A stretch of DNA of 33,540 nucleotides from Dehalococcoidia bacterium (GTDB lineage: Bacteria; Chloroflexota; Dehalococcoidia; Lucifugimonadales; UBA2985): contig CAUZOU010000003.1 in NCBI GenBank assembly GCA_963581795.1, positions 1 through 33,540 on the forward strand, read 5' to 3'. The notes beneath the pieces were generated by a model. The model saw only the letters and a list, made by a program, of their open reading frames with translations. It was not told the DNA's origin and ran no database searches. A program made the position numbers and the translations under genes. This document shows, piece by piece, positions 8,519 to 33,540 of the stretch; positions within the stretch are counted from its first letter, which is position 1; every line of letters starts with the position of its first letter.

Positions 8519-10212
8519 TATGATCTCGCCTCTTCTGCCAATGGTTCCTCCACAAGCTCCGCCGTAGTCTGCCCAGCTGGGATCATTGGATAAACATTCT
8601 CTTCCGGTTCTACCATGAAGTCCACCAAGACCGGGCCTGGGTGTGACATGGCCTCTCGAATGGCGTCCTTGGACTGGCTACGTTCGGTAACACGGATACC
8701 GTGTATGCCGAAAGCCTCGGCCAGCTTCACAAAATCTGGATTCCTTGTGTAGTGAGTGGAGAAGTAGTCCTTTTTGTAGAACAAGTCCTGCCACTGCCTG
8801 ACCATGCCCAGAAAGCCGTTGTTAAATATGGCGAACTTCACAGGAAGATTATTCTCAACTATGGTGGCCAGTTCTGACATGGTCATCTGGAAGCCACCGT
8901 CGCCCGCTATGGACCAGACAACCCTATCGGGCTGACCTACCTGAGCCCCCATTGCCGCGGGTACTTCAAAGCCCATCGAACCCAGCCCTCCTGAGGTGAT
9001 GAAGGAGTTTGCTATTTTGCATGCATAGTGCTGGGCGGCCCACATCTGGTGCTGCCCTACTCCTGTCACGACTATGGCTTTGCCCTCGGTAACCTCACAC
9101 AGGTCACGCACTACTTGTTGCGGCAGCAGCTTATCCGTTTCACGAATATGCAGAGAGGGGTGATTAGCCTTAAGCTCTTCAAGACGCTTTATCCATTCTG
9201 GGTGCGTTGCCGACTCCACAGACGGGTTCAACTCTCTCAATACTCTGGCTAAGTCCCCGACTATGGGGACGTCGGTACTAACGTTCTTATCTATCTCAGC
9301 TGGGTCTACGTCAACGTGAATGATCTTGGCGTTGGTGGCAAAGCCACTAGTGTCGCCAGTAATCCGGTCATCGAAGCGCATGCCAAGTCCGAGGACGAGG
9401 TCAGCTTCATCTATGGCGAGGCTCGCATAAGCCAAGCCGTGCATGCCCGGCATGCCAGTAAAGAGAACGTGGTCGTCCGGGAAAGCACTGCGACCAAGAA
9501 GCGTAGTTTCTACGGGGATTTGTGCCTTTTCAGCCAGTTCCGTCAACTCATCAAAAGCCCCGGAGATGATTACGCCATGACCAGCCAAGATGAGGGGTCT
9601 TTTGGCCTCATTAATAAACTTGGCAGCTTTGGTTATCTGTGACGGATCCCCATCCAATACAGGCTTGTAACCAGGCAAATCCACAGTCTCCGGATAAACG
9701 AATTCCGCTACCTCTGTAAAAACGTCCTTGGGAATGTCAACAAGGACAACGCCTGGGCGGCCTGTACTTGCAATATAAAACGCCTCTTTTATGGCGACTG
9801 CTATATCCTCTGCTCTCATAACCAGATAGTTATGCTTGGTAACGGGAAGGGTTATGCCTGTCACGTCAACTTCCTGGAAGGCGTCTTTTCCAATGGCTGC
9901 CCGCCCTACCTGGCCAGTGATGGCCACCATTGGTACCGAGTCCATCTGTGCGGTGGCTATACCGGTAACCAGATTGGTAGCCCCTGGCCCAGATGTGGCC
10001 ATGCAGACACCAACTTTACCAGTTGCCCGTGCGTAACCGTCGGCGGCCATGGATGCGCCTTCTTCATGTCGAGTCAATATATGCCTAAGTTGTGGATAGC
10101 TGGACATGGTCTGGTATAGGGGCAATATTGCCCCGCCGGGTAAACCAAATATCACTTCTACGCCCTCACGCAGCAGGCTCTCACAAACTATTTGACCTCC
10201 CGTTAGCTTCAT
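8518..10212 (-). CDS. ilvB: acetolactate synthase large subunit
   Basis: FGLPGGAILP, RHEEGA, TSGPGATN, RFDDRITG, GVGQHQMWAAQ, ThDP-binding GDGGFQM...NNGFLGMVRQWQ. Confidence 0.98.
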   Translation of the reverse strand: MKLTGGQIVCESLLREGVEVIFGLPGGAILPLYQTMSSYPQLRHILTRHEEGASMAADGYARATGKVGVCMATSGPGATNLVTGIATAQMDSVPMVAITGQVGRAAIGKDAFQEVDVTGITLPVTKHNYLVMRAEDIAVAIKEAFYIASTGRPGVVLVDIPKDVFTEVAEFVYPETVDLPGYKPVLDGDPSQITKAAKFINEAKRPLILAGHGVIISGAFDELTELAEKAQIPVETTLLGRSAFPDDHVLFTGMPGMHGLAYASLAIDEADLVLGLGMRFDDRITGDTSGFATNAKIIHVDVDPAEIDKNVSTDVPIVGDLARVLRELNPSVESATHPEWIKRLEELKANHPSLHIRETDKLLPQQVVRDLCEVTEGKAIVVTGVGQHQMWAAQHYACKIANSFITSGGLGSMGFEVPAAMGAQVGQPDRVVWSIAGDGGFQMTMSELATIVENNLPVKFAIFNNGFLGMVRQWQDLFYKKDYFSTHYTRNPDFVKLAEAFGIHGIRVTERSQSKDAIREAMSHPGPVLVDFMVEPEENVYPMIPAGQTTAELVEEPLAEEARS

Positions 10213-10243
10213 ACTCCGTTACCTCCGTTGGTACTTTTCGACC

Positions 10244-10281
10244 AAAAAAATAATTCCCGCCCCATATAAGGGACGGGATTA
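10244..10281 (-). terminator. intrinsic terminator of the T-box leader
   Basis: UCCCGUCCC-UUAUAU-GGGGCGGGA followed by AUUAUUUUUUU; its 5' arm is shared with the antiterminator. Confidence 0.9.
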
Positions 10282-10531
10282 ATTGAGTAAATCCCGCGGT
10301 ACCACCCTTTTTCCCCGATTTTTATTAAACCGGGACGCTCTTACAGGACACAAATATGCCCCTCCCCTTGATAACGGGAGGCCATCCCGGCCGGTTCTAC
10401 TTGCCCCGACCAATCGAAGCTTTCTTCCGGCGGCTCAGGAGCTACGTTCTTAGGGCCTTTCCACGTCTGCTTCCACCGTACCAGACTCGCTAAATGGAGG
10501 ATTCCCTCTTACTCTTCTCCGTCTTAGCCTT
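10244..10531 (-). promoter_or_regulatory. T-box riboswitch, predicted specifier GUA (Val)
   Basis: K-turn GGC-UAA-GA...GA-GCC; stem I with AGUA, AGCGA and GGUGGAA; specifier loop GAAC-GUA-G (codon at 10445-10443); stem II with AGUA/GAA; CCGUUAUC element; T-box AAAAAGGGUGGUACCGCG (about 10294-10312); antiterminator closed by CGUCCCUU. Confidence 0.95.
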
Positions 10532-10568
10532 TGATTACCTTCTTTTTTTATACACTAAAGGAGCTTTC

Positions 10569-10596
10569 AGTCTAGCACAACTCGACTATTTGTCAA
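10569..10596 (-). promoter_or_regulatory. promoter of the T-box/ilvB transcript (TTGACA-16-TAGACT with TGn)
   Basis: Minus strand TTGACA aatagtcgagttgTGc TAGACT, about 40 nt upstream of stem I. Confidence 0.7.
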
Positions 10597-10654
10597 CATG
10601 CGTAGGCACGGAGAAATCGTACGCATGATAGATTGCTAAGCATCACACAAACAA

Positions 10655-12088
10655 TCAGGGCAAGATTGCCCTAGTAGCCGCTTCGATAGCGTCCACAAGA
10701 GGTCCCGGGTACACGCCAACAACGATGACACCCGCTATCAGCACACCTAGTGCACCGCCGCTGACCCGGGATATCTTCAGAGGCGTATTATCGATTGCAG
10801 GCACCATGTACATCTGCTTCATAACCATCATGTAATAGTAGAGAGATATGAGGCTGTTGGTTATAGCCAGCCCCACCAGCCACAGAAGCCCCCCATCAGC
10901 AGCCGCGGCGAACAGGTAAAACTTGGTTGTGAATCCAGCAAAGAATGGAAGCCCTGCAAGTGAGAAGAGTGACACTGTCATGGCCATGGCCACCAAGGGT
11001 GACCTGTCAGCCAGGCCGGCGAAGTCGGAAATCTCTTCTTTATCCGTCGAGTTGTAGAAAATGATAACGCACATGAAAACCGCCAGATTTGTAATCCCGT
11101 ACCCAACTAGGTGAAAGATCACACCATTGGAAGCCAGCGGCGACAAGGCTGCCACACCCATCAACAGATAACCCACCTGCCCCACACTGGAGTAGGCCAG
11201 CATGCGTTTGATGTTTTGTTGTGCCAACGCTACCAGGTTTCCAACCGTCATGGTCAGGGCCGCCAGGATCACCAGAATTATCTGCCAGTCGTCGAAGACA
11301 GGCATAAATGCCTGTGAGAAGAGTCGCAGTATAAGAGCAAAGGCGGCTGCTTTCGATCCAACAGCCAAGTATGCAGTCACAGGCGTAGGGGCACCCTCGT
11401 ATACATCGGGGGCCCACATGTGGAAGGGCACCGCCGCCACCTTAAAGCCAAGCCCGGCTATTATAAGAACCAGACCCACCAATACTGCAGGGTTTATAGG
11501 AGTCCCGTCCAAGAGGAGTGCAGCGTGTATCTCTTCAAAGCGGGTGGTGCCCAGCATCCCGTACACCTGGCTGATTCCGTATAAAAGCAATCCTGAAGCG
11601 AAGGCGCCCAGCAGAATATATTTGAGCCCGGCTTCACTGGGTTTGAGCCCATGACGGCCGTAAGAGACCAAGACGTACAGGCTGAAACTCAAAAGCTCCA
11701 GTGAGATATATGCCGTCAGCAGTTCGCCGGAGGCGGCCATCAGCATCATCGCCAGAATTGAGAATAGCAGTATGCCGTAGTACTCTCCGGGACGGCTCAA
11801 GTGTTTCTTAACGTAGTCCACCGACGCAAGCACCACCAGCACCCCAAGCACTAGGAAGAAAGCCTTGAAGAAGAGGGAGAAGTTATCCACAAGGAAAAGG
11901 CCGTCGTAGAGATTCGTGTCCCTACCCCACATATACCACAAGGAGAAGATAAGCACGCCTATCAGTCCCACCACACTCAACGACGGCAGGTAGCCTTTCT
12001 TGTCCTGTGGCAGGATAAGGTCTATGCCAAGCACTCCAAAGGCCACGGCTGCCAGGGTGAATTCTGGTGAAAACAGCATGTAGTTCAT
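10655..12088 (-). CDS. nuoN: NADH-quinone oxidoreductase subunit N
   Basis: Multi-TM antiporter-like subunit; SLELLS, EAGLKY, GFKVAAVPFHMWAPDVYEGAPTPV, KRMLAYSS; last gene of the nuo operon. Confidence 0.96.
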   Translation of the reverse strand: MNYMLFSPEFTLAAVAFGVLGIDLILPQDKKGYLPSLSVVGLIGVLIFSLWYMWGRDTNLYDGLFLVDNFSLFFKAFFLVLGVLVVLASVDYVKKHLSRPGEYYGILLFSILAMMLMAASGELLTAYISLELLSFSLYVLVSYGRHGLKPSEAGLKYILLGAFASGLLLYGISQVYGMLGTTRFEEIHAALLLDGTPINPAVLVGLVLIIAGLGFKVAAVPFHMWAPDVYEGAPTPVTAYLAVGSKAAAFALILRLFSQAFMPVFDDWQIILVILAALTMTVGNLVALAQQNIKRMLAYSSVGQVGYLLMGVAALSPLASNGVIFHLVGYGITNLAVFMCVIIFYNSTDKEEISDFAGLADRSPLVAMAMTVSLFSLAGLPFFAGFTTKFYLFAAAADGGLLWLVGLAITNSLISLYYYMMVMKQMYMVPAIDNTPLKISRVSGGALGVLIAGVIVVGVYPGPLVDAIEAATRAILP

Positions 12089-13587
12089 GTCAGGCTAGCC
12101 ACCCTGGCAAGAATGGGAGCCACACCGCTGTTAATTAAGTCCATCCATGGTTTTGGATATAGCCCGACTACCAGTAAAAAGATCACCAGTATTCCCATGG
12201 AAAATCCCTGAAGCCGTGTGGCATCGGGCAGGTGTTCCCAACGAGGGTCCAAGGGGCCGAAGAATACCTTGGCCAAAAGCCTGAGGATGTATACGGCCGT
12301 GATGGCCGCTCCTATTATTCCCAGCATGCCCAGCACAGGGTAGTCCTTGAAGACACCAATGAATACCATCAACTCCGCTACAAATCCGCTGAAGCCTGGC
12401 AGCCCCAGAGAGGTGAGTCCCGCCACGGCAAAGAAGGCGGCTGTGAGTCCCATGCGCTTGGTCAACCCCTCCAGCACTCCAATATCTCGAACGTGGGCAC
12501 GGTCGTAGACGACTCCGACTAGGGCGAAGAGGAGGGCTGTCATAATGCCGTGTGAGAACATCTGCAGGACCGCACCACTGACTCCCAGAGAGTTGAGCGT
12601 GGCAAAGCCCATGAAGACATATCCCATGTGACTCACGCTTGAGTAGCCAATAACGTATTTCAGGTCTCGTTGCCCCATAGCCGACACAGCGCCGTATACC
12701 ACGTTGATCGTGCCCAAGATGATCAAGACTGGCATCCAGTCCTCTGCACCCTGAGGCAGCAGGTCAATACCAATCCGTATTATGCCGTAAGCCCCAAGTT
12801 TCATCAGCACTCCGGCGTGGAGCATACTCACCGATGTGGGTGCCGCCACGTGACCGTCAGGCGACCAAGAGTGAAACGGCCATAGACCAGCTAGGATACC
12901 AAAGCCAACCATGAACAGTGGAAAGAAAATACGCTGGAAGTTCTCGGAGAAGGTCACATGTTCCAACTCCAGAAGCGAAAATGTCCCAATCCCTCCCTCC
13001 ACAAACACGGCTACAAGGGCCACCCACACGAGTACGCTTCCAGCCACCAAATACAACATCAGCTTCATTGCCCCGTACTCTTTGGGCCTCAGGAAACTGC
13101 CGAAGTCGCTGCTACTTCCCCAAACTCCAATGAGCAGGTACATTGGCATAACAGCCAGTTCGTAGAAGAAGAAAAAGAAGAACAGGTCAAGAGACACGAA
13201 CACACCAAAGACTCCCGCCACAAGCAGAAAGAAGAGGACAAAAAATTCTTTGGCTCGATACTCAACGTTCCACGACATTAGGACTCCCGTGAACATCACG
13301 ACTCCGGTGAGCAGGACCATGGGCACTGAGATGCCATCTACACCCAATGAGAAGGTAACACCAAGGGAGTCCAGCCACTGAATCTCACGAGTGAGCTGAT
13401 ACCCTGCCTCAGCGGTGTCGTACGCCAAGAAGACGTAGGCAGTGAGGGCCGTGATCACCACTGCCACTGCCGCGGACGTCAGCCTTATATGCTGGAGCCT
13501 ATCCTTTGGCAGAAAGGCCAGAAGGACGCCCCACCCAAATGGTATTGCCACAAGGGCCATGAGTACGTATGAGTCGAATGTATCCAC
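12085..13587 (-). CDS. nuoM: NADH-quinone oxidoreductase subunit M
   Basis: LGVDGIS, FFFFYELAVMPMYLLIGVWG, PFHSWSPDGHVAAPT, MKLGAYG, YSSVSHMG, GLPGFSGFVAE. Confidence 0.96.
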   Translation of the reverse strand: MDTFDSYVLMALVAIPFGWGVLLAFLPKDRLQHIRLTSAAVAVVITALTAYVFLAYDTAEAGYQLTREIQWLDSLGVTFSLGVDGISVPMVLLTGVVMFTGVLMSWNVEYRAKEFFVLFFLLVAGVFGVFVSLDLFFFFFFYELAVMPMYLLIGVWGSSSDFGSFLRPKEYGAMKLMLYLVAGSVLVWVALVAVFVEGGIGTFSLLELEHVTFSENFQRIFFPLFMVGFGILAGLWPFHSWSPDGHVAAPTSVSMLHAGVLMKLGAYGIIRIGIDLLPQGAEDWMPVLIILGTINVVYGAVSAMGQRDLKYVIGYSSVSHMGYVFMGFATLNSLGVSGAVLQMFSHGIMTALLFALVGVVYDRAHVRDIGVLEGLTKRMGLTAAFFAVAGLTSLGLPGFSGFVAELMVFIGVFKDYPVLGMLGIIGAAITAVYILRLLAKVFFGPLDPRWEHLPDATRLQGFSMGILVIFLLVVGLYPKPWMDLINSGVAPILARVASLT

Positions 13588-13640
13588 TTTTACTCTATTT
13601 ACCCTGTTATTTCATTACTACGGCAATTGTAAATTTCTTA

Positions 13641-15542
13641 TTACGCATATGGTAGCGCCAGCCACCATATCAATGCTACCGCCACCACTCCAACAGCCAT
13701 TCCAAGGGCGTAGTTATATACCTTGCCCGTCTCCAGATACCTCAACTTCCATCCAGACAGTAACACCGAACGCCCCGTCGCGTTCACTCCAGCATCGTTC
13801 ACCACTATACGATCAAAGAGTGCCATGAAGCGGGCAAATGCCAGGACAACTCTGTCGATGCCCCACTGATACAGGCTATCAATATAGTACTTGTTGACCA
13901 GCACCCGATGCAGTCCAGCGAACCGCTCACGAATACGCTCTGACGAAAGCGCTTTCCCTGAATACAGCGCCCAGCCAAGGCCAAACCCCGCTATGGAAAG
14001 CACAACTGAGATGGTCATCACAAGGAAGTTGATATGATAGGCCTCCGGCTCCTCAAAGAACAGCCAGTTCCCAAAACCGTCGTAGCCAGGGATCAGTCCA
14101 GGGGCCAACAGTCCTGCCCCCAACGCAAGAACGGCAAGGGCCATCAGAGGCACGGTCATGACCAAAGGCGATTCATGGGCATGATCGTTTTCCGTCTTCA
14201 GATTGCCGAGCACCACAAGGAACAGAAGCCGGGCCATGTACAGAGCGCTCATAAAAGCGGCTACAAGGGTCAGGATAAAGAACAGAGGGCCTCTTCCGTC
14301 GAGTACGGCCACAAGTATCTCATCCTTGCTGAAGAACCCGCTGAGAGGAGGTATACCTCCTAGGGCCAGCAGGCCAATGCCAAAGCTAATTGATGTCACC
14401 GGCATACGCTTCCAAAGGCCGCCCATTTCCCGTATGTCACGTTTGTCGCCGGTACCGTGTGCAATGCTCCCGGCCCCAAGGAACAGCAGTGCTTTAGCAA
14501 AGGCATGAGCCACCAGATGGAATATAGCCGCTGTAAACCCAAACGACCCAAGCGCCAGCATCATGAAGCCAAGATGGCTTATGGTTGAATACGCAAGCAC
14601 ACGCTTGAGGTCGGTCATCACCAACGCCATAGCCGCCGTGATAAGAGCCGTCAAGAGACCAATCACTGCGACCACGAGCATCGCCGTATCCGACATCACG
14701 AACAGAGGGAATACCCTTGCCACAAGAAAGACTCCGGCAACCACCATCGTGGCCGCATGGATCAGGGCGCTGACAGGCGTAGGGCCTTCCATGGCGTCTG
14801 GGAGCCACACGTGCAAGGGAAACTGGGCCGACTTACCCATAGCACCCAGGAATATCAACAAGACTGCAGCCGTCAGAGTGCCGGAGCCTATGCCGCCGTT
14901 TTCCGCTACGTGAATAATTGTGGAGATGTCGAAAGTCCCAGTCTCGTTGAACAACAGCAGAATGCCTATCAGGAGGCCAACATCCCCAATTCTGGTGGTG
15001 ATGAATGCCTTTTTGGCCGCTTCTGCAGCAGAACGTCTGTGATACCAGAACCCTATGAGCAGATAGGAACATGCACCCACAAGCTCCCACGCTATGTACA
15101 TCAATAGGAAGTTGTCGGCAAGAACCAGGGTTAGCATTGCCGCGGCAAAGAGGGAGTGGACGGCAAAGTACCAGCTAAACGACCCCTCCTGATCTTTCAT
15201 ATACCCCAGCGAGTACACCTGCACCATGAGAGCCACAAAGGTCACGAGGCCGAGCATAACCACCGACAATTCATCAACGATTATCCCCAAAGTGAAGGTA
15301 TTCCTTCCGACAGTGAACCAATCCACCGAAAATGTACCGCCACCTGAGGAGAGAAACTCATTCAGTATGTACCAAAAGACTCCGAAGCCAGCGAGGATTG
15401 CCAGAGGCGAGAGAAGGGCCACCTGCTTTGGCAAGAAGCGGCTCAAGATAACGATGGCAAAGAAAGCGGATGCACAAATAGCGGGCGCTAACCACGCCCA
15501 CTGCACGCCCAAATTCGCCACCGGTTCTGCCTGAAGCATCAT
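13641..15542 (-). CDS. nuoL: NADH-quinone oxidoreductase subunit L
   Basis: WELVGACSYLLIGFW, TRIGDVG, GKSAQFPLHVWLPDAMEGPTPVSALIHAATMV, HAFAKALLF, C-terminal lateral helix region. Confidence 0.97.
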   Translation of the reverse strand: MMLQAEPVANLGVQWAWLAPAICASAFFAIVILSRFLPKQVALLSPLAILAGFGVFWYILNEFLSSGGGTFSVDWFTVGRNTFTLGIIVDELSVVMLGLVTFVALMVQVYSLGYMKDQEGSFSWYFAVHSLFAAAMLTLVLADNFLLMYIAWELVGACSYLLIGFWYHRRSAAEAAKKAFITTRIGDVGLLIGILLLFNETGTFDISTIIHVAENGGIGSGTLTAAVLLIFLGAMGKSAQFPLHVWLPDAMEGPTPVSALIHAATMVVAGVFLVARVFPLFVMSDTAMLVVAVIGLLTALITAAMALVMTDLKRVLAYSTISHLGFMMLALGSFGFTAAIFHLVAHAFAKALLFLGAGSIAHGTGDKRDIREMGGLWKRMPVTSISFGIGLLALGGIPPLSGFFSKDEILVAVLDGRGPLFFILTLVAAFMSALYMARLLFLVVLGNLKTENDHAHESPLVMTVPLMALAVLALGAGLLAPGLIPGYDGFGNWLFFEEPEAYHINFLVMTISVVLSIAGFGLGWALYSGKALSSERIRERFAGLHRVLVNKYYIDSLYQWGIDRVVLAFARFMALFDRIVVNDAGVNATGRSVLLSGWKLRYLETGKVYNYALGMAVGVVAVALIWWLALPYA

Positions 15543-15553
15543 TTGTTACGTCC

Positions 15554-15859
15554 TTACCATTTCATCAAGTCAACCTCATCCACATCCACCGAAGCACGAT
15601 CCCTAAAGAGTCTTAAAATTATGGCCATTGCCAGTCCAACCTCAGCCGCCGCCACGGTGATAACGAATATCGCTATGACCTGCCCCGTGGCCTGCGCCCC
15701 TTCCCCGTACGCCGCAAAGGCGATGAGATTTATGTTTACCGCGTTCAGCATAAGCTCCAGGGCAAGGAGGACGAGTACTGCGTTACGCCTGGCCAGCACT
15801 CCATATATGCCTATTGAGAACAGGGCTGCACTGAGTATCTGAAAGTGGATGAGGCTCAT
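15554..15859 (-). CDS. nuoK: NADH-quinone oxidoreductase subunit K
   Basis: RRNAVLVLLALELMLNAVN, VAAAEVGLA; three TM helices. Confidence 0.97.
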   Translation of the reverse strand: MSLIHFQILSAALFSIGIYGVLARRNAVLVLLALELMLNAVNINLIAFAAYGEGAQATGQVIAIFVITVAAAEVGLAMAIILRLFRDRASVDVDEVDLMKW

Positions 15860-16347
15860 TCTGCATCCCTCTCCCTAGCTATGACTATGGCCCCAATGAG
15901 GGCCACAAGCAACACCAGAGATGCCACCTCAAATGGAACCGCCCATTTCGTAAAGAGGCTATCGCCCAGTTCCCTGAAAGCAACCGAATGACGGGCGGTT
16001 TCATTCGGAGCCCCGTTTATAATCGCCCAGGCCAGAAGCACAAACACCCCCAAGGCCGTTACAATAGCCAACGGCCACTGTGGATTGGCCCTCATTGCCC
16101 GGAACTCCTGTACCCGTGTGAGCATTATCACGAAGAGCACCACTATGGTGATGGCCCCTCCGTAAATGAGTACCTGCACCAGAGCAAGGAACTCGGCCAG
16201 CAGTAGTAAATACAGTCCTGCAACCGCCATCAAGGACACAAGAAGTAGAAGTGCGGCGTGCACCACGTTGCGTGACATCACCACCCCCACAGCACCACCA
16301 AGACACACGACACCGAGGAGATAAAACACGGCCAGAGACAGGCTCAA
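15856..16347 (-). CDS. nuoJ: NADH-quinone oxidoreductase subunit J
   Basis: RNVVHAAL, AEFLALVQVLIYGGAI, PFEVASLVLLVALIGAI. Confidence 0.96.
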   Translation of the reverse strand: MSLSLAVFYLLGVVCLGGAVGVVMSRNVVHAALLLLVSLMAVAGLYLLLLAEFLALVQVLIYGGAITIVVLFVIMLTRVQEFRAMRANPQWPLAIVTALGVFVLLAWAIINGAPNETARHSVAFRELGDSLFTKWAVPFEVASLVLLVALIGAIVIARERDAE

Positions 16348-24999: not shown

Positions 25000-27425
25000 C
25001 AGAATAGCTGGGCAATGGTGGTTCCGTCAGTGCGCGTGCCCTCGTCGGGAACAAAAGAGGCTACTTGCTTGTGCAAAGCGAGGTATTCACGCAGAGCGTC
25101 TCGCAGTGCTCCTGTTCCCACTCCATGCACAATTCGCACCGTAGACAATCCTGCCAAGATGGCTTGATCCAAGAAATGATCCAATTGCATTAATGCCTCT
25201 TCTACCCGAACCCCCCGAACGTCCAGTTCACGCCCTGAGAATGCCTCAATGGGAGACGAGGCAGTAACGGTAATGGCAGGAGATTTAGCAGCAGCTTCAG
25301 TCTTCCGCTCAATCTGGTCCATGGAAATCTTAGCCCGCATGGACCCGAGCGCTATTTCCAGCGTCTGATCATCTGCTACAGCCGCAAGCACCTCCATGGG
25401 TTGACTAACTCCTTGCAAGTACACCATATCCCCCGGCTTCAGACCCCATATCCAGTCGCGGCTAGCCCCGGCAGGACGCCATGAGGGAGACCTGAGCTCT
25501 TTCCTCAGCCCCGACACTTCATGTCTCTGGTCACGCAGAGCCTTGGAAGAATTCGCTGGCACAGGTTCTTCGACGGCTTGCGCCACGCCTTTCGAAACAG
25601 ACGGAGCTACAGTACGTTTCGAGGCTCGCTCAGCTACCATCAGTTTTTGCCATATCTCCTCGACCTTGATCTCCAGATCGCGGCGTGCCGACTCCATCAA
25701 ACTATCCTTCTCATGCTCCAATGCAGTCAGCTTCTCGTCCAATTCCTGTCGCAACGCCTTGGCGCGTCCCATCTCCTGCTCCGCCTCCTCTCGCTTCGCG
25801 GAGGCCTGACTCTTCTCTCGCTGTAGGTCGCCCAGCAGCCCTTCCATTTTATGATAATCATCTGAGAGTAGAGAACGTGCATCATCAATGACCGCTTGCG
25901 GCATACCCAGTCGGGCGGCAATGGTGATGGCATAACTCCTCTCTGAAAGGCCCATGATAAGTCTATAGGTTGGAGACAGTGTTTCAGGATGTAACTCTAC
26001 GCTGGCATTGACCATGCCTGGGTTCTCGCGTATGAATTCAGCTAGGTCCCTCAGGTGCGATGTGGCAATCGTCTGGATGTCCCTCCGATGGAACTCAAGA
26101 AGGACTGCCTTGGACAGGGCCGTTCCTTCCTCTGGGTCCGTGCTCGTGCCCAGTTCATCAATAAGAACCAGGGATGCAGGTGTAGCCTCCGCAAGAATCT
26201 TGGTCAGATTATCAACGTGGGAACTAAATGTGGAAAGGGAACGCTGAATGCTCTGCTGGTCTCCTACGTCTGCATAGAAGCCGTCGTAAATACTGAGGGT
26301 GGCCTCGTCCGCTGGGATGTGTAGACCAGAATGCGCCATCGCAGCCAGCAGACCAGTCGTCTTCAGAGCAACGGTCTTCCCTCCGGCGTTGGGGCCGGTA
26401 ATTAGCAAGAGAGACCACATGTTGCCCATTTCTATCGTATTCGGAACCACCTTGCCCGAAAGCAATGGATGACGGGCATCCTTGAAGCGCAAATAAGGTC
26501 TTTTGGTTTCGATCACCGTGACTGGCACGCTATTCGTGGCAACAGAATATCGACCCTTGGCCATTGCCAGGTCTATCTGCGCCACCATGTCCAGTCCCAG
26601 CAGTAGTTCGCCGCTCCAGTACCCAACTGACTCCGAAAGTATCTGTAGGACTCGCGCTTCCTCGCGCTCTACCGCCAAGCGTAGCTCACGCGACTGATTG
26701 CCTTCGGAGACTATTGTCAGAGGTTCCACGAATAGCGTTGCACCACTGCCGGATACATCGTGCACGATGCCCGGCACATGGTGCCTCATTTCGGATTTTA
26801 CCAACAGTACCATGCGGCCCTGGCGCTGAGTTATAAGAGGTTCCTGGAGCACACCGCCGTCCTGGAGATGCCTCAGGGTTTTCTGGAGATGTTCTTCTAA
26901 CCTAACGTAGGTTCTCCGTGACTCGACCCGCAGGTCTGCCAGTTGTGTGGAAGCCTGATCCAGCACTTCACCGTCTCTCCCAATTGACTTGAATATCTGC
27001 GATTCAAGGTCGCTCAGGTCCGGTATTTTCCCGGCCAGAGAAGCTAGAATGGGCAATTCCCCATGGGCAATAACAGCGTGACGAGCCTTGCCGAGCACGG
27101 TAATCACTTCGAGCACGTCTCGCAATTCATTGCCTTGTAGCCTGCTCCCGAGAGACGCTGCTTCTACCTGCAGCCTCACATCCTTGTTTGAGGAGATGTC
27201 TAAATCTTTACCGCTGCCAAGGAGCTGCACGGCCTCTGAGGTCTCAAGCTGACCCTGCAGAACATCGTCGTGTGTATGAGCAGGTCTCAGCGTAAGGGCC
27301 AACTCCCTTGCCATAGAGAACTGGATGCGACCTGCCAGGCGCTCCAGCACCAGAGGAAACTCCAACAACTCCAGTGCCCTGCTCTGGAGTTGTTGCTGTG
27401 TATCTGTATCGACAGTGCCGCTCAT
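24999..27425 (-). CDS. mutS2: MutS2 (RqcU-like ATPase with KOW and Smr domains)
   Basis: LELLEFP N-terminus, GIVHDVSGSGATLFVEP, ARHPLL, Walker A TGPNAGGKT, GDQQSIQRSLSTFSSH, Walker B LIDELGTSTDP, coiled coil, KOW LKPGDMVY, Smr ELDVRG...IVHGVGTGALR. Confidence 0.97.
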   Translation of the reverse strand: MSGTVDTDTQQQLQSRALELLEFPLVLERLAGRIQFSMARELALTLRPAHTHDDVLQGQLETSEAVQLLGSGKDLDISSNKDVRLQVEAASLGSRLQGNELRDVLEVITVLGKARHAVIAHGELPILASLAGKIPDLSDLESQIFKSIGRDGEVLDQASTQLADLRVESRRTYVRLEEHLQKTLRHLQDGGVLQEPLITQRQGRMVLLVKSEMRHHVPGIVHDVSGSGATLFVEPLTIVSEGNQSRELRLAVEREEARVLQILSESVGYWSGELLLGLDMVAQIDLAMAKGRYSVATNSVPVTVIETKRPYLRFKDARHPLLSGKVVPNTIEMGNMWSLLLITGPNAGGKTVALKTTGLLAAMAHSGLHIPADEATLSIYDGFYADVGDQQSIQRSLSTFSSHVDNLTKILAEATPASLVLIDELGTSTDPEEGTALSKAVLLEFHRRDIQTIATSHLRDLAEFIRENPGMVNASVELHPETLSPTYRLIMGLSERSYAITIAARLGMPQAVIDDARSLLSDDYHKMEGLLGDLQREKSQASAKREEAEQEMGRAKALRQELDEKLTALEHEKDSLMESARRDLEIKVEEIWQKLMVAERASKRTVAPSVSKGVAQAVEEPVPANSSKALRDQRHEVSGLRKELRSPSWRPAGASRDWIWGLKPGDMVYLQGVSQPMEVLAAVADDQTLEIALGSMRAKISMDQIERKTEAAAKSPAITVTASSPIEAFSGRELDVRGVRVEEALMQLDHFLDQAILAGLSTVRIVHGVGTGALRDALREYLALHKQVASFVPDEGTRTDGTTIAQLF

Positions 27426-27603
27426 GATATTCTTGCCTAAAGGAAGATTCTACAGCCAGCTTAACAGGCTGCGAAAGGGCCGTCCAAAAAGCGATCCGGC
27501 GTGAACTAGTAGCGTCCTCTTTTTCCTATCACACTCTCGCCAGACCCAAGTCTCTAGTGCAAATGACAAATTATTCCTACGGATGTATAGGACGATTCTT
27601 AGT

Positions 27604-28155
27604 TTACATTGGCAGAAGGGGAAGTACCCCATCTTCAAGGTCTACTTTTAAGGCATTGATTGCCAGGCACTGCATTGCGTAATAACCTATCGTCACGATA
27701 AGATCCACCGCGCCTTGCGGCCCAAGCAGGTGCTCAACCGCACTGTAGGTCGCGTCCCTAACCTGATGATTTCCCAAGAGTTCCTGGGTAAACTGGACGA
27801 ATACACTTTCCTTTGGCAATAGTCGCCTGGGTGGGCCTCCCTCCCTGATCGCTTCAATCACCTCATCTCTAACTCCTGCCTCCCTAGCCGAGTCGCAATG
27901 ATGGGTCCATAAATACTGACATCTCAAGCTTTTCGCTGTTGTCAGCGTAGCAATTTCCCTAACATCCGATGAAATCGCTGGCGATACATAACGAAGCTGG
28001 TCACCAAGTTGAGCAACACTGGACGCTACGTCCGGGCTATTGAGAAGCGCGGCAAAAGGTCTGGCCACATGCCCTCGATTTGCACCAATCCTGTCGTAGA
28101 TATCACGTTTGTTAGCGGGCATATCATCCTTATTTAGATAGGGTACTCTAGGCAC
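27604..28155 (-). CDS. carboxymuconolactone decarboxylase / AhpD-like family protein
   Basis: PRVPYL, ALLNSP, REIATL...CQYLWTHH...AREAGV, VDLIVTIGYY. Start placed at GTG 28155 behind AAGGAGG. Confidence 0.85.
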   Translation of the reverse strand: MPRVPYLNKDDMPANKRDIYDRIGANRGHVARPFAALLNSPDVASSVAQLGDQLRYVSPAISSDVREIATLTTAKSLRCQYLWTHHCDSAREAGVRDEVIEAIREGGPPRRLLPKESVFVQFTQELLGNHQVRDATYSAVEHLLGPQGAVDLIVTIGYYAMQCLAINALKVDLEDGVLPLLPM

Positions 28156-28216
28156 GGTACACCTCCTTAGTACAATAGAACAATCTTGGTCTAACGCAGG
28201 TATCACCAGATCACAA

Positions 28217-28619
28217 CTACGTCTTCAGTATCTCCATGTGCCTAAGCACACTCTCCAGGACTTCTGTCTTGATCAAAGCTAAGTCGACGTCCCTATCCAA
28301 AGTCGTCATGGTACAAGTGGATTTTCTTCTTTTAGCCTTCGCCGATAAAGCGTTTGCCCTCGTAGCGGCCAGACGCAAAGGAGGAGGGGAAAGGTTCGAG
28401 TGTGCTTGGAGGAGCCTCAGAGCCAGATGGAATCGCAAACGAGTCATCTAATGAGCGTTCGGCTACTGCTGCGTAAGCCAGGGAATCAACATTCTCTGAA
28501 TAGAACGTCAACACCCGTCTCACGCGATCCTGAACGGTCTCCCAATCCTCAACATCGGATGCTTGCTCAGCTTCGTCGAGGAGACGGTCAATCTGCCGCT
28601 GGATACGCTCGCTAGCCAT
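28217..28619 (-). pseudogene. disrupted N-terminal fragment of a Hanks-type Ser/Thr protein kinase
   Basis: MASERIQRQIDRLLDEAE helical leader, then SFASGRYEGKRFIGEG*(TAA 28334-28332)KKKIHLYHD, a frameshift, then TTLDRDVDLALIKTE = kinase subdomains I-II; the rest of the kinase domain is absent. Confidence 0.8.
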
Positions 28620-28820
28620 CCTACCTCCATCAATCAGACGATGTGGAAAGCCTAATTTTACTCCAAGAACCTAACCTAGTCGAGCAGGATTTCCCGAAGC
28701 AAGGAATACTGTGAAGCCAAGCTCATGAACGTGATCAGGGCAAGAATCATTGGAACAAGTCATTTTGAGACGGGTTCCTACATTTCTAGGAAGGCAGCGC
28801 ATAGCCTAGAATGCAATCAA

Positions 28821-28853
28821 TGGCTGCCCAACCCGTATAGAATCAAGAATTTT
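28821..28853. repeat. left attachment junction (core + P arm)
   Basis: tggctgcc core; ccaacccgtatagaatcaagaatttt (28828-28853) matches the reverse complement of 32949-32974 at 24/26 positions. Confidence 0.88.
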
Positions 28854-28940
28854 TAGCATGCCTTCTGAATTAGCTCTAGTTCGAGCTCAGTGAACCACAG
28901 CACAAGGCGAGGCCGTACGCTGTTCCAGACGGGGGCGCCC

Positions 28941-30542
28941 TCAGTCCTCACCGAGCCGAGCTGGCCGCAGCGTCTCCAGCCGCAGGTCATAGGAGGTCCC
29001 GTCGGTTGGCTGCCACCCTGTCACGTTGGAACTCACCGCGTAGGTGTCGTGCCGCCACGCCAGGGGGATGACCCAGTACTCCTCCGCCATGTCGTGGAGC
29101 GCTTCCCGGATACGTTGGTCCCTCTCCTGAGGATCGGCGATGCTGAAGATCTCCTGGTAGAGACGGTCACCACTCTCCAGATCATAGTAGGACATCATTG
29201 TGCCTGTCGCGGAGGTCATGTACTGGTAGATGGACTCGCCGGTACCATGCCAGTTCTCATAGGCACCATGGAAGATGGGAGCGGGCGCTATGTCCACGAA
29301 GTTCTGCGGGCGTGGAACGAAGCGAGACATCACATCTGGGTAGTCCGTGGACACGATCTGCACGTTCAGGCCGATAGCCCTCCAGTCCTTGGCTAGCCGC
29401 TCCAGCGTCCTGGGCATGTCCCGCATTCCATAGGCAAGGATGGACAGTACGTACACCGGCTCTCCCGCGTAGCCGCTCTCCTCTAGGAGGGTCCGGGCCG
29501 TCTGAGGATCGTAGGGGTACGGTGCGAAAGAGGGGTCCCAGCCCACGTTGACAGGAGAGGCGAAGGGCACGCTGGGCGCCGCCACAGCCACTTCCTCCGG
29601 AAAGATGCCCTGAATTGCCGCCTCCACGTCTACTCCCAGCGCCAGTGCCTTGCGGAAGGGTAGGCTGGAGGTTAAATAGGCCGGATCGTAGCTCATAAAG
29701 AAGCGCAGCAACGTACCCAGCACGTAGCGCGGCCCCTGGACCTGGAATCCCTCTGCCTTGAGTTGCTCCACGTCCTCATGCAAGACGATGGTCAGGTCCA
29801 GCTCCCCCGCTCGCAGCTTGGACAGTCGGTCTTCAGGCGCGGGAACGTGGATGAGACGGAGGCGGTCAAAGCCCGGGACGCGTTCAGCGTTCCAGTAGTC
29901 CCGGTTGGCCTCAAACTCGACGTACTCCCCCCTGACCTGATCCACGAACCGCCAAGGCCCGCTGCCAAGGGGGACATCCTCGAACCCAGGCGCTCCCACC
30001 GTTTCGTAGTAGTGCTTGGGCAAGAGCGGCATGTCTCCCCGAACCGAGCCCAGGTTGGAGAGGAACTCCGGGTCAGGCCTCTTCAGGTGGAGTCGGGCGG
30101 TGTAGCGGTCTACGATCTCCACCCGGTCCAGTGCTTCCTCCACATCGGAGCAGACGGCGCAAACGGCGATCGCCCGGGGATAGTGCTCTAGGTTGAAGGC
30201 GATGTCCTCTGTGGTGATCTCCACTCCATCGTGCCAGTGCATGCCCTGGCGTAGAATGAGAGTGTAACGGGTCGCGTCCTCGTTGGTCTCCCAGCGCTCT
30301 ACCAGCCCCAGCGCTAGATCAGGCCGTCCGGATGGACCGGCACCGATGAGGAAGTCGTACAGAGGGCCGTGGTAGAGCAGGCCCAGTTTTCCTTCTAGCG
30401 ATGGGTCCATAACTGCGGCTCCGAAGTCCGGCACCGCCACCCGGAGGACGGTATCTTCCTGGCTCACGGAGGTTGGCGCCGAGGAACAGGCAGTCACCAC
30501 GAACAATCCCATCAGGATCAGGATTGTGTAAAGTTTAGTCAT
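28941..30542 (-). CDS. ABC transporter substrate-binding lipoprotein, family 5 (peptide/nickel type), orphan
   Basis: Lipobox VVTAC; LVERWE...YTLILRQGMHWHDGVEITTEDI; PLGSGPWRF; FEANRDYW; FRKALALGVD; PYDPQTARTLLEESGY. Confidence 0.92.
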   Translation of the reverse strand: MTKLYTILILMGLFVVTACSSAPTSVSQEDTVLRVAVPDFGAAVMDPSLEGKLGLLYHGPLYDFLIGAGPSGRPDLALGLVERWETNEDATRYTLILRQGMHWHDGVEITTEDIAFNLEHYPRAIAVCAVCSDVEEALDRVEIVDRYTARLHLKRPDPEFLSNLGSVRGDMPLLPKHYYETVGAPGFEDVPLGSGPWRFVDQVRGEYVEFEANRDYWNAERVPGFDRLRLIHVPAPEDRLSKLRAGELDLTIVLHEDVEQLKAEGFQVQGPRYVLGTLLRFFMSYDPAYLTSSLPFRKALALGVDVEAAIQGIFPEEVAVAAPSVPFASPVNVGWDPSFAPYPYDPQTARTLLEESGYAGEPVYVLSILAYGMRDMPRTLERLAKDWRAIGLNVQIVSTDYPDVMSRFVPRPQNFVDIAPAPIFHGAYENWHGTGESIYQYMTSATGTMMSYYDLESGDRLYQEIFSIADPQERDQRIREALHDMAEEYWVIPLAWRHDTYAVSSNVTGWQPTDGTSYDLRLETLRPARLGED

Positions 30543-30617
30543 GATCGCTCTTCAAAAATAGCTGGGACAACATACCCTCATCCTCTGATTCTAGCAAGCA
30601 CTCCCTCCGCATACCAC

Positions 30618-30694
30618 AATCTGCCCGTTTCAGAATATATTATGCTCAACCTGCGCAATCGTACAATATATTGCATGACTAAGACGGGCAGATT
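30618..30694. promoter_or_regulatory. candidate operator region upstream of the substrate-binding protein gene
   Basis: AATATATT palindrome twice (30634-30641, 30665-30672; 31 bp apart) inside an 11-bp perfect inverted repeat (30618-30628 / 30684-30694). Confidence 0.4.
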
Positions 30695-30910
30695 TGTAGC
30701 GAATATGAGCTCCAGGGAAATGTGCCGTAAGCAAATGTGGCTACAAGGACACCACTAGACCAGGACAGGTGGAATCCCCTAGTGGCCCTTTATCCTGTTA
30801 CTATTCCTGGCAGGGTAGGCGCGCACCACAGGGCGACACTGGCCGCACACAAGACGCCTACAGCCAAGAGAGAAAAGACACAGTATGGTAAGCCCTGTCC
30901 GAGCATCAAA

Positions 30911-32509
30911 CTACTCCACTTCCGTGGAAGAGGGTCCAGGGACGAGCTTGATGAGGTTGTCGCCGAAGAGGCTTGCCACCCACAGAGTGCCCCTTGCCGA
31001 GACCACGGCAGAAGGACTGTCGACGGGGAAGAAGCCCGTTTCACCCGTGGCGATGTCTACCCTCAAAACCATGTCGGCGCCCCATGCAGCAGTCCAGAGA
31101 TAGCGTCCGTCGAAGACAAGGTGGCCAGGCCAGCCACCAACCACAATCTGAGTCAGTACCTCACCCTCCAGCGAGAGCCGGATCAGCTTGCCCTCCCAGT
31201 TGATAGACACCCATATGCTCTCGCCATCGAAGGCTAGGCCACTGGGGCCCTTGCCGCCCAGATACGGCGTCTCCTCGTAGCCTGAGGCGGGAGGTGGAGC
31301 GCCAGACACCCGGTATCTGGCTACTAGAGTGCCCTCCCGGCTGAACTTCTGCACCTCCTGCAGATTCAGGCTGGCCACCCACAGGTGCTCCCCATCTAGG
31401 GCGATCGACCATGGGGCCGTATGCCCACCCCTGATGGGAATGCGGCCCACAATCTCCCCGTCCACTGTCATGGAGTAGACCGCGTTACCCCAGGAGGTGA
31501 CTACCCATAGGAATTCCCCGTCGTACGCCAAGTCCACCGGTGCCGTGTGCCCGCCCCCAATTGTATATGTGTCCACCACTCGGCCGGAGAGGTCAACTTT
31601 CGTCACAGTGCTATCTCTGCCGTTGCCCACCCAGATATATCCGGCCGCGTGTAGGATGGCGCGCGGCCCATCCCCCACCCTCACGGTAGCCACGACGTGG
31701 CCATCCTGATCAAGCTTGGTCAACGTATTCTCCGCGCTGCTGACGACCCAGATATGCTCGCCGTCGAAGGCAAGTGCTTCGGGTCTGGGGAAGCCCTCAA
31801 AGAACACCCCTGTCATATGAGGGCGCAAGTCCACCAAGTCTGGAGTCACCGGCGTAGGTGGGGACTGAGGAACGGCGAGCACTGGCGTGGGCGCTGGGAT
31901 AGTAGTCGGTGCAGCGGCCAGCTCAGGATTGACTGGCTCTAGGTCTAGCCAAGCGTAGGCCGCGTGGCCACCCGTGAACAAATCGCCATCGATATGGCCG
32001 TCGACTTGCAGCGTCCCAGAGGGCATGAACAGAACATCGCTCACGTCCATCTGAGAAAGGAGGCTGAGGGTGAAGTCCATGGAACCGGATGGGGACAGCA
32101 CGCCAAGCTCACCGTCGAAGCGGTACTCGTGGGTGTCAGTGATCACCAAACACGTGCCATCATCCTGGACTTCCATAACCACGTCCAGCCTAGCCGCCCC
32201 AGAAAGGGGAGCACCAACGGCGTCCATCCTCTCCTGCAGCGAGAGGGGCAATGTGTACTTGCCGTCCACCGCTAGGACCAGCTCCACGACGCCCTCAACA
32301 ACACCCTCACAGGGAGGGTTGCCTCGGAGCACGTATGTCCCAGACCAGCGCGTTCCATCCATAGTGCCGAACACGGGAAATTCCGTCGCCGCGCCTGTCG
32401 GCGCGGTCGCTGACGGGGTATCGCCTGCAGTGCCAGGTTCTGGAGATGGTCCCTCACTACAGGAGACCGCTATCACCAGCAGCAAGGCCAGCATCCACAG
32501 AAAACGCAT
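30911..32509 (-). CDS. lipoprotein with Pro/Thr linkers and C-terminal 7-bladed beta-propeller (Vgb/YncE/NHL-like)
   Basis: Lipobox IAVSC; seven repeats of the type P-x-x-LAFDGE-x-IWV; extended -10 TGcTACTAT 9 nt before the ATG and no SD (possibly near-leaderless). Confidence 0.85.
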   Translation of the reverse strand: MRFLWMLALLLVIAVSCSEGPSPEPGTAGDTPSATAPTGAATEFPVFGTMDGTRWSGTYVLRGNPPCEGVVEGVVELVLAVDGKYTLPLSLQERMDAVGAPLSGAARLDVVMEVQDDGTCLVITDTHEYRFDGELGVLSPSGSMDFTLSLLSQMDVSDVLFMPSGTLQVDGHIDGDLFTGGHAAYAWLDLEPVNPELAAAPTTIPAPTPVLAVPQSPPTPVTPDLVDLRPHMTGVFFEGFPRPEALAFDGEHIWVVSSAENTLTKLDQDGHVVATVRVGDGPRAILHAAGYIWVGNGRDSTVTKVDLSGRVVDTYTIGGGHTAPVDLAYDGEFLWVVTSWGNAVYSMTVDGEIVGRIPIRGGHTAPWSIALDGEHLWVASLNLQEVQKFSREGTLVARYRVSGAPPPASGYEETPYLGGKGPSGLAFDGESIWVSINWEGKLIRLSLEGEVLTQIVVGGWPGHLVFDGRYLWTAAWGADMVLRVDIATGETGFFPVDSPSAVVSARGTLWVASLFGDNLIKLVPGPSSTEVE

Positions 32510-32660
32510 AACGAAAGCATAGTAGCACAGGGCCGGTCATCAAGTAGACTGCGCCATACCTACATCACTGAGAGAGGTTTAGGGCCAGTTCAAAAGTTCT
32601 TACGGTAATGGGCTCTTAGGCAGCATTCAGCGTAACGCTATATCCCAGCCGTTCAATTCT

Positions 32661-33008
32661 ACTGACCTCTCGCCGCTCATACATAGTCTTAAAACACGCA
32701 TTAACCAACTCCCGTCGGCCCGCGAAGCGGCACAGTTGCTTATCTCGGGGAACAAGCTGCACCTGCTAGATTCGGCAAGCATACATACCTACGTAAGCGA
32801 TATGAGATCTCTACTTAACGGAGGCATGTTAGATGAGCAAAAAGTATTCGTTCGTAGTTTTGTCGAAGAAGTAGCGATCAAAGGCAAAGAGTGTCCCCTC
32901 AGATCCAGGATACCGATACCACGGCAGCCGTTGAGTCATACGACATCGAAAGTTCTTGATTCTATACGGCTTGGCTGCCGAGCCTGGATTCGAACCAGGG
33001 TTACGTGA
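32661..33008 (+). pseudogene. C-terminal remnant of a large serine recombinase/integrase
   Basis: In-frame DLSPLIHSLKTRINQL...HTYVSDMRSLL...EQKVFVRSFVEEVAI...IPIP...KVLDSIRLG resembles the coiled-coil/C-terminal end of large serine recombinases; no catalytic domain upstream (in-frame TAG at 32580); frame reads through the att arm into the tRNA antisense. Confidence 0.75.
32949..32979. repeat. right attachment junction (P arm + core overlapping tRNA 3' end)
   Basis: aaagttcttgattctatacggct followed by the tggctgcc core; inverted partner of 28828-28853. Confidence 0.88.
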
Positions 33009-33045
33009 GTCAGAGTCACGTGTGCTACCACTACACCACTCGGCA
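32972..33045 (-). tRNA. tRNA-Gln (anticodon CTG)
   Basis: TGCCGAG TGGTGTAGTGGTAGCACA CGTGA CT-CTG-AC TCACG TAAC CCTGG TTCGAAT CCAGG CTCGGCA G CCA; U1-A72 pair, G73 discriminator, encoded CCA; 74 nt. Confidence 0.98.
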
Positions 33046-33061
33046 ATGCAGGCCGCCATTC

Positions 33062-33090
33062 AGTGTAATACCACTCTCAGTCATGGTCAA
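33062..33090 (-). promoter_or_regulatory. promoter of tRNA-Gln (TTGACC-17-TACACT)
   Basis: Near-consensus hexamers with 17-bp spacer, -10 ending 16 nt upstream of the tRNA. Confidence 0.7.
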
Positions 33091-33096
33091 TCTTGC

Positions 33097-33540
33097 TCAG
33101 GGAGCCAGAAGTCCCTCTTTCCGCAGGTCAGGCGAGCCTTCTTCGTCCGGGAGCATGTCAAATATCAAGCGCCCGCGCGATATTGCCTTTATGATCTCGG
33201 CGTATGTATCCAGTGCCTGGACGCGGGCGATTATATATTCCTGTATGTGCTCAGCATCAAGGCTTACAAGGTAATCGTACAACCTAAGTGACGACTCAGC
33301 TCCCAACCGCTTCTGCACAATGAGTTCCTGTTTCATATCTGCCAAATTCGGGTCGTCAAGCACCACAAGCCACTGAATCAGGTATCCCAGGAAGTGCTCG
33401 TCCCTATTGATGTCTGCATACCAGGAGTCAAACCTGTCGCCGATAAGGTCTCTGAACCCCTGATAGTCAGGGTATGAAACTAGGGTGAGGCCAGTAAATT
33501 CCTCCAACTTTAGCCAGAATGCCCTCTCAAACTGCTGGGC
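33097..33540 (-). CDS. hypothetical protein (partial, 5' end beyond the right edge)
   Basis: Frame is open to the window edge (AQQFERAFWLKLEEFTG...); acidic, helical-looking; no family recognised. Confidence 0.7.
   Translation of the reverse strand, partial: AQQFERAFWLKLEEFTGLTLVSYPDYQGFRDLIGDRFDSWYADINRDEHFLGYLIQWLVVLDDPNLADMKQELIVQKRLGAESSLRLYDYLVSLDAEHIQEYIIARVQALDTYAEIIKAISRGRLIFDMLPDEEGSPDLRKEGLLAP

Follow-up and report, generated by a model that had tools for sequence, protein, structure and literature searches.

A probable remnant of a large-serine-recombinase element at the 3' end of a tRNA-Gln gene in a Dehalococcoidia genome

The locus described here raises the question of how a 4151-bp island came to lie against an intact tRNA-Gln(CTG) gene in the genome of a Dehalococcoidia bacterium, what kind of enzyme put that segment there, and whether it can still move. 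The locus lies in a stretch of 33,540 nucleotides, hereafter the window, that makes up the entire contig C3 of the source assembly (GCA_963581795.1, denoted G000; 1.01 Mb in 80 contigs, 71.6% complete), and whose DNA is present in seawater and marine metagenomes: at least 0.97 of the sampled words were found in 7 runs from 7 studies, all 7 being marked as possible sources of the window DNA, and half or more of those words in 10 of the 20 listed runs. We propose, with a probability of roughly 0.85, that the island is the remnant of an element integrated by a large serine recombinase (LSR) at the 3' end of the tRNA-Gln(CTG) gene.

The insertion and its junctions

The island is bounded by two copies of the direct repeat TGGCTGCC, whose starts are 4151 bp apart, and by two inverted arms of 26 nucleotides that are complementary at 24 of the 26 positions (92%); the coordinates (Table 1) confirm what an earlier note on this DNA had read from the letters, namely the repeat at both ends and an attachment site of the circular form (attP) consisting of a 26-bp inverted repeat centred on TG. 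When up to 3 mismatches were allowed, the 26-mer had two sites only in the window, and in none of 100 shuffled sequences did two matches occur, while the exact 17-nucleotide core of the arm was found at two sites only in the 1.01-Mb assembly; no copy of the arms better than chance was present in G001 and G002, which belong to the same genus, or in G012, a genome of the same family. Direct and inverted repeats overlap one another, by 1 and 3 bases, and one further copy of TGGCTGCC lies inside the island, at position 29007. In the circle joint reconstructed through one copy of the core the arms stand 4 nucleotides apart, which places the centre of the dyad on the mid-core T and G, at positions 5 and 6. 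The reconstruction from the coordinates thus yields what is expected of the attP of an LSR, that is, a site of about 50 bp with inverted half-sites and a non-palindromic central dinucleotide.

The same site without the island was found through a DNA search of 41 genomes, in which both other genomes of the genus proved to carry the two flanks side by side, G002:C50 and G001:C3 joining the homologous left flank straight to tRNA-Gln at GCTGCC. In an ungapped four-way alignment the window agrees with the relatives as far as GCTGCC at its left junction and from GCTGCC onward at its right one, this hexamer being the sole block common to all four sequences and being preceded by AA in the relatives and by TG in the window. 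As read from that alignment, the 4151-bp segment is an insertion at the 3' end of the tRNA-Gln gene, and it presents the short core in its left and right junctions (attL and attR), together with an empty target (attB) at that core in relatives, that are characteristic of LSR elements. The Rfam tRNA model, which gave the only match in a scan of 28600-33200, covers 32975-33045, which leaves the TGG at 32972-32974, just outside it, as an encoded CCA. The empty site that the earlier note had predicted, an intact tRNA-Gln 3' end, held in that the flanks meet inside the predicted core in both relatives and lead into tRNA-Gln, but neither in its complete 8-mer, of which GCTGCC alone is supported, nor in the encoded CCA, which the relatives' genes lack and which in the window is supplied, along with the discriminator base, by the arm of the element.

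The island is not a misassembly. The assembled Logan contigs of four seawater runs (X5, X10, X18, and X19) were aligned to the window—in X18 and X19, 2 and 9 of the 30 window bins were covered—and, for all that follows from them, such contigs drop rare forms and cannot show absence. One contig of X5 spans 27844-33001 with one difference, and a diverged contig of X10 runs across the left junction, covering 28624-29010 with 25 differences and 11 gap letters. A junction was counted as bridged when at least 31 letters lay beyond it; record 21 of X5 and record 7 of X10, which reach only 30 and 29 letters, respectively, past 32972, were not counted for the right junction.

On the far side of the empty site in G001:C3 (L018), about 1.65 kb of other sequence lies between a gene of the CMD family and the tRNA-Gln gene, and the window at 27400-28820 differs from G001 there, so that the neighbourhood of the tRNA-Gln gene is variable beyond the island itself.

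The integrase stub and a full-length relative

The nature of the enzyme is indicated by the frame that runs from the island into the tRNA gene. When this stub was compared by phmmer with 1.84 billion representative proteins, 299 matches were obtained at E <= 1e-3, 150 of which were listed; 12 of those listed, chosen among the longer proteins, were scanned against Pfam, and 3 of them were full-length (Resolvase, Recombinase, and Zn_ribbon_recom), 6 had one or two of the domains, and 3 had none. The full-length LSR homologues P0021, P0062, P0111, and P0152 align with the stub at about residues 405-530, from which match the stub is, by homology, the C-terminal part of an LSR, behind the zinc ribbon; by the same alignments about 390-410 N-terminal residues are missing, and with them all the catalytic and DNA-binding domains. 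The view that the integrase had been reduced to a stub was accordingly upheld. The last 10 codons of the stub are the antisense of tRNA-Gln, its first ATG is at 32736, and the guanine-plus-cytosine (GC) fraction of 32583-32971 is 0.481; Pfam gave no match in the ATG-started open reading frame (ORF) of 90 codons at 32736-33008.

One of these homologues reaches beyond homology to the site itself. P0152, a protein of 526 residues with all three LSR domains, was the sole match of a word-indexed search of longer proteins (1 of 677 candidates), and its last 18 residues, VLDSIRLGCRAWIRTRVT, are identical to those of the stub, the arm encoding 8 of them and the antisense of tRNA-Gln the other 10. This identical tail means that a complete enzyme, joined to the same site in the same way, occurs in nature; it also answers the suggestion of the earlier note that full-length recombinases ending in a VLDSIRLG-like sequence be sought, since P0152 ends in VLDSIRLG followed by the tRNA-antisense tail.

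LSR systems comprise prophages as well as integrative elements, with phiC31, Bxb1, and A118 as examples. From the established behaviour of such recombinases, a circular element would have carried an attP of about 56 bp, with two inverted 26-nucleotide half-sites around a 4-nucleotide spacer; an LSR tetramer would have paired that site with an attB formed by the acceptor end of the tRNA gene plus the DNA just downstream, and strand exchange would have taken place at the central dinucleotide inside GCTGCC, likely TG, so as to split attP into the two arms. As the sequence shows, the integrase gene spanned attP, for which reason its last codons after integration read antisense into the tRNA, and the latter stays intact because the arm of the element supplies the discriminator base and the encoded CCA. 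Later decay would have removed the first 390-410 or so codons of the integrase, with the catalytic, recombinase, and zinc-ribbon domains, as well as other content of the element, and the interior is now taken up by two GC-rich lipoprotein genes.

Table 1. Features of the island and of its target, in positions of the window
Feature	Position	Strand	Remarks
Left core copy (attL core)	28821..28828	+	GCTGCC at 28823-28828 aligns with the tRNA-Gln 3' end in the relatives' empty sites
Codons from within the left core	28825..28893	+	22 codons and a stop, CPTRIESRIFSMPSELALVRAQ; predicted from the reading frame as the end of the integrase frame in the circle (attP form)
Left arm	28828..28853	+	Taken as half-site P' of the old attP; inverse of the right arm at 24/26 positions
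Cargo gene 1	28941..30542	-	Family-5 solute-binding protein (SBP_bac_5, E 1.1e-51); GC 0.618
Inverted repeat in cargo intergenic spacer	30618..30694	.	16 nt (88%); conserved in G002:C37
Cargo gene 2	30911..32509	-	Beta-propeller; weak Vgb_lyase, SGL, and NHL-like matches; GC 0.614
LSR C-terminal stub	32583..33005	+	Stop-to-stop frame, 141 codons; homology from about residue 22-28 to 139
Right arm	32949..32974	+	Read as the P half-site; within the stub codons for K-VLDSIRLG; ends in TGG = tRNA CCA
Right core copy (attR core)	32972..32979	+	CCA, discriminator base, and 4 nt of the tRNA-Gln acceptor stem
tRNA-Gln(CTG)	32972..33045	-	Intact; sole CTG isoacceptor gene in the assembly

Related loci and the weight of the evidence

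We take the island for a decayed representative of a serine-integrase branch with tRNA genes as targets, and looked for this branch beyond the window. Among the 150 listed homologues of the stub, 15 have near their C-terminal end a W-x-R-T/S motif that, in those that were aligned, comes after a conserved VL....G and equals the antisense of a tRNA T-arm. At a metagenome locus (L043, 190-300) the 17-nucleotide arm core is followed by TGG and then by the 3' end of a tRNA-Asn(GTT), with about ten LSR-like codons upstream and no integrase frame left; on the evidence of that arrangement, L043 is a second such footprint, at a different tRNA and still further decayed. It came from a scan with the arm core that matched 15 loci in genome contigs and 37 in metagenome contigs, with a single match each; no locus among them had both arms close together, and thus none had the attP form. 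After extension L043 was the sole credible relative, the remaining matches being attributable to chance; L051 is doubtful, with 27 of 70 flanking bases alike and neither an LSR nor a tRNA adjoining. The one match to the stub among viral contigs (L108) proved to be nothing but a tRNA from a phage tRNA array read in antisense, and a search of viral contigs with P0001 and P0152 gave no match.

Within the order to which the window belongs, relatives about 35% identical to the stub were found in 129 of 301 sampled genomes, as many as 13 scored matches being present in one genome. The LSR frames at this level share SVLDFV.SGPP, for the most part in the same codons (GTTCTTGAT...), and differ beyond it: judged by eye in 28 of them, about 15 of the tails after that motif are T-arm-like without a tRNA, 6 resemble a weak inverted copy of the arm, and 3 stop immediately. 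ARAGORN found no tRNA at the T-arm-like antisense tails of these relatives, and behind the frames of 28 of them the search for an uninterrupted attP gave best dyad scores of 10-14 out of 22, which are too weak. The genome G267 has a frameshifted, near-complete LSR with a 21-nucleotide arm in its last codons, an inverted copy of that arm (20/21) 9.0 kb away, and a GCCCACC direct repeat beside both arms, a layout like that of the window. It occurs there twice, at L114 (C14) 5700-16050 and L115 (C32) 3230-13542, as a 10.35-kb repeat whose copies are 99.9% alike and which ends 23 nucleotides past the one arm, inside a T-loop-like GTTCGAG, and 1.3 kb past the other.

Several observations weigh against an LSR-integrated element at the tRNA-Gln gene. 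The window retains nothing of the catalytic part of an LSR, and the enzyme is therefore deduced from a stub of 141 codons in which Pfam found no Resolvase, Recombinase, or zinc-ribbon domain. In the aligned residues that precede the shared tail, the stub and P0152 are identical at 36 of 96 positions, which makes the two enzymes cousins sharing a site, not near-copies. The 8-mer taken alone is within chance, having 5 matches in the window where 1.96 are expected, a number reached by 6 of 100 shuffled sequences; only GCTGCC, 6 of its 8 bases, is common to the empty sites of the relatives, and the flanks of G001 and G002 are 12-24% diverged from the window, so that the junction is resolved only to within that hexamer. 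TG is most likely the crossover dinucleotide by its place in the dyad, symmetry alone being the ground for that choice. The contigs of the four runs contained neither an attP circle nor an empty site of the same species, contigs being all that was searched. At the 29 loci of order level (L079-L107), a tRNA is present in 2 and the frame runs into the tRNA in none, and the 10.35-kb unit of G267, in not ending at the arms, gives no proof that arms are termini.

A much wider claim would make the island the fossil of a sizeable LSR clade, undescribed as far as our searches reach, that uses tRNA 3' ends as attB and carries attP in its own last codons, whose C-terminal tail is exchanged on integration for an antisense-tRNA tail, and whose element supplies the discriminator base and the CCA; the exchange of tails would perhaps serve as a switch between the free and the integrated state, and P0152 would be the working enzyme for exactly this pair of attP and attB, able to move the island. 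We hold this proposal as tentative, at somewhat less than even odds.

Cargo, present state, and rival explanations

The two genes of the interior are compositionally foreign: against a genome mean GC of 0.534 (standard deviation 0.021), none of 2251 windows of 1.6 kb was as high as the cargo, so that what the earlier note had judged by eye, a cargo richer in GC than its surroundings, stands at the top of the assembly. By eye, the N-termini of both products resemble lipoprotein signals; no permease genes adjoin the solute-binding gene, and of the propeller gene the assembly has a single copy. The G001 orthologue of that gene (80% identical in nucleotides, 77% in amino acids) lies on another contig, beside a tRNA-Gly(CCC), with a GC of 0.60 within a neighbourhood of 0.40-0.46. 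By this comparison the cargo genes are not syntenic core genes, since the orthologue is at a different locus and that genome has no above-chance arm; the finding that the earlier note had named as fatal to its proposal, namely that the cargo belonged to the syntenic core, was not obtained.

The sharp break in GC, from 0.61-0.62 in the cargo to 0.48 in the stub, gives substance to an alternative history in which an older element lost its interior, and with it most of its integrase gene, to GC-rich genes that came in later. The orthologue of G001, being GC-rich in a GC-poor setting at another locus by tRNA-Gly, indicates that the propeller gene moves on its own, and the recurrence of the propeller gene and the solute-binding gene as a pair of paralogues in G001:C48 and G012:C97 points the same way. 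Against it, a second set of junctions or repeats was not seen around the cargo within the island, where the only repeats listed are weak, and in mobile elements GC often differs between the integrase module and the cargo. We regard this mosaic origin as a possibility, with odds of about one in three; it concerns the history of the island and is compatible with LSR integration at the tRNA.

Three further observations attach to the cargo. The pair of a propeller gene followed by a family-5 solute-binding gene on one strand, with the paralogues 36% and 48-49% identical in amino acids (G001:C48 2968-5572 and G012:C97 5-1548), suggests from its recurrence that the two proteins work together. The spacer between the cargo genes, with the first codons of the solute-binding gene (30471-30812), is 76% identical to G002:C37 1012-1370, which lies upstream of an ORF of 203 amino acids; the inverted repeat of the spacer matches G002:C37 on both strands (91%) and belongs to no Rfam family; the hairpin may be a shared regulatory element. 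In G000:C20 (L075, 1-1000) a tyrosine-integrase gene cut by the start of the contig ends just before the 3' end of a tRNA-Gly(CCC), and the ttttgtgcc that precedes this end reappears tripled 5' of the same tRNA in G001:C48 (L007, 820-940), where it directly precedes the propeller orthologue; a second island system, of the tyrosine type, may reside at tRNA-Gly.

According to a less favoured alternative, which we consider unlikely, the island is still cis-mobilisable, in that the integrase has been lost while attL and attR are usable and can be moved by an LSR of the same specificity and a directionality factor from elsewhere. The complementarity of the arms at 24 of 26 positions is in favour of this alternative, as is the existence of P0152 in full length with the identical arm-encoded tail joined to the same tRNA-Gln sequence, the 8 arm-encoded residues being identical in the two proteins as against 36 of 96 before them; yet so well conserved an arm is equally explained if the enzymes diverged while the integrase was active. 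Islands without an integrase but with att sites have moreover been described, in the available portions of the sources, as cis-mobilizable elements (CIMEs; PMC5704250) and among the ssrA islands of Dehalococcoides (PMC3146451).

Against such mobilisation, no suitable enzyme was found in the genome itself: within the assembled 72% of it the stub gave only its self-match at E <= 10, and P0152, whose best relatives in the family are 56-57% identical, gave nothing against G000 at E <= 1e-30. Matches to PF07508 in this genome lie on C4 and C66 only, none being in the window. They correspond to an intact LSR of 459 amino acids on C4 (L003) and to a gene split into frames of 180 and 216 amino acids on C66 (L002), neither of which is related to the C-terminal region of the stub (E 0.38 for that of C4).

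The contigs of the four runs contained no 4151-bp skip and no circle joint, a result to be read with their loss of rare forms in mind. The sole long skip, in X5 from 28165 to 32974, belongs to a contig about 90% identical in the flank and thus to a sister species, and one contig of X10 shows the empty site of a relative. A diverged contig of the island in X10, about 6-9% diverged, has the same left junction. Diverged pieces from that run differ by about 3% over the cargo genes and the right-flank gene (34/1189, 15/476, and 17/524), whereas over the stub the difference is about 9% (33/358), with two 1-bp insertions, behind 32814 and 32965, the latter inside the right arm; these indels shift the frame of the stub. 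A diverged strain thus keeps the island, and the faster change of the stub fits neutral decay. If the diverged contigs come from one strain, which contigs cannot prove, the island would predate the split of the two strains, and its cargo genes would be under constraint while the stub and the arm drift. The population data lean against present mobilisation in trans, which P0152 makes conceivable, and, from the contigs examined, the island most likely belongs to the chromosome today as a fixed segment that is inherited vertically.

A non-autonomous transposon, with the arms as terminal inverted repeats and CTGC or more as the target-site duplication that a DDE transposase, supplied in trans, would have produced, is very improbable: the arms and the short direct repeat are real, and inverted termini beside such a repeat are the classical signature of a transposon, but the island has no transposase, its arms are at two sites of the assembly and at chance level in G001, G002, and G012 instead of occurring in the many copies expected of transposons and miniature inverted-repeat elements, the direct repeat overlaps the inverted one instead of flanking it, the right arm lies within conserved last codons of an LSR with the same product in P0152, and the target is the same point of a tRNA in L043 as well as, judged from the tails, in 15 of the 150 listed homologues.

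Comparison with known systems

An LSR remnant at tRNA-Gln would bear on the use of these enzymes and on the detection of islands alike. Serine integrases are tools of genome engineering, for which a new enzyme with known attP and attB is directly usable, and with attL and attR in the window, two natural attB sites in relatives, and P0152 as the candidate full-length enzyme, the pair is testable. A serine recombinase would here occupy the niche of tyrosine integrases while keeping the tRNA intact with a shared core of only 6-8 bp, which island finders seeking long tRNA duplications would likely miss. The locus would also offer a dated example of an element decaying into ordinary chromosome, the cargo and flank differing by about 3% between strains and the stub and arm by about 9% plus indels.

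The 3' ends of tRNA genes are, in the available parts of PMC8092301 and PMC5704250, the domain of tyrosine integrases. The islands that those enzymes form share with ours the target and the restoration of its 3' end upon insertion (PMC5704250 and PMC8092301, as far as their accessible text goes), and differ in having direct repeats of 25-76 bp and a tyrosine integrase (available text of PMC8092301), in place of which we found a core of 6-8 bp, inverted arms, and a serine-type remnant; in the island there is no tyrosine-integrase gene, and its repeat has 8 bp, as compared with the at least 15 that mark such islands. In a literature search of titles and the beginnings of abstracts we encountered no description of a serine recombinase at tRNA genes, and the word tRNA is absent from the main text of a survey of thousands of LSRs (PMC10083194).

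CIMEs, defined in the accessible sections of PMC5704250 by attL and attR retained without integrase or transfer genes, resemble the island in sequence, which has both arms and both cores and only a stub of the integrase. That definition was developed on integrative and conjugative elements and integrative and mobilizable elements with tyrosine recombinases, for which accretion and co-excision were shown in that text (PMC5704250), whereas the island is known from its sequence.

The nearest published system that we found is that of the ssrA islands of Dehalococcoides (PMC3146451), which, in the portion of that report available, use a CcrB-like serine recombinase, DsiB, at the tRNA-like end of the transfer-messenger RNA (tmRNA), with a 20-bp direct repeat; 15 of 31 such islands are without the integration module and are considered there as perhaps cis-mobilisable or fixed. 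The serine recombinase, the 3' end of a small RNA as target, and an integrase adjoining the junction are common to both. In the ssrA islands, however, the target is the centre of the tmRNA T-loop, and a six-gene module (DsiB, DsiA, RecF-like, ParB-like, and Mom-like proteins, and more) is present, a second small recombinase being part of it (same portion of PMC3146451), whereas the island of the window has its target at the discriminator and acceptor stem of tRNA-Gln, with a core of 6-8 bp and palindromic attP arms. Neither an ssrA target with the 20-bp repeat nor the six-gene module is present in it, its genes being the two of the cargo and the stub only, and by this description it is set apart from the ssrA islands.

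In its architecture the island agrees with the LSR elements. Serine-integrase cores of 5-8 bp (PMC8092301), with an example of 8 bp (PMC9303363), and a core with a central dinucleotide in LSR att sites (PMC10083194) are given in the available text of these papers, and the island is like the elements described in them and in the accessible part of PMC5704250 as regards the Resolvase/Recombinase/Zn-ribbon family of its enzyme, an imperfectly dyadic attP of about 50 bp, a short core, and the lack of a long target duplication. Of the full LSR that such elements encode the island retains the C-terminal part only, as its enzyme is now a stub, and the integrase frame, unlike that of the described elements, crosses attP. 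Finally, where the LSR elements described in the available sections of PMC8092301 and PMC5704250 disrupt protein-coding genes, the island is placed at a tRNA gene's 3' end, which it restores.

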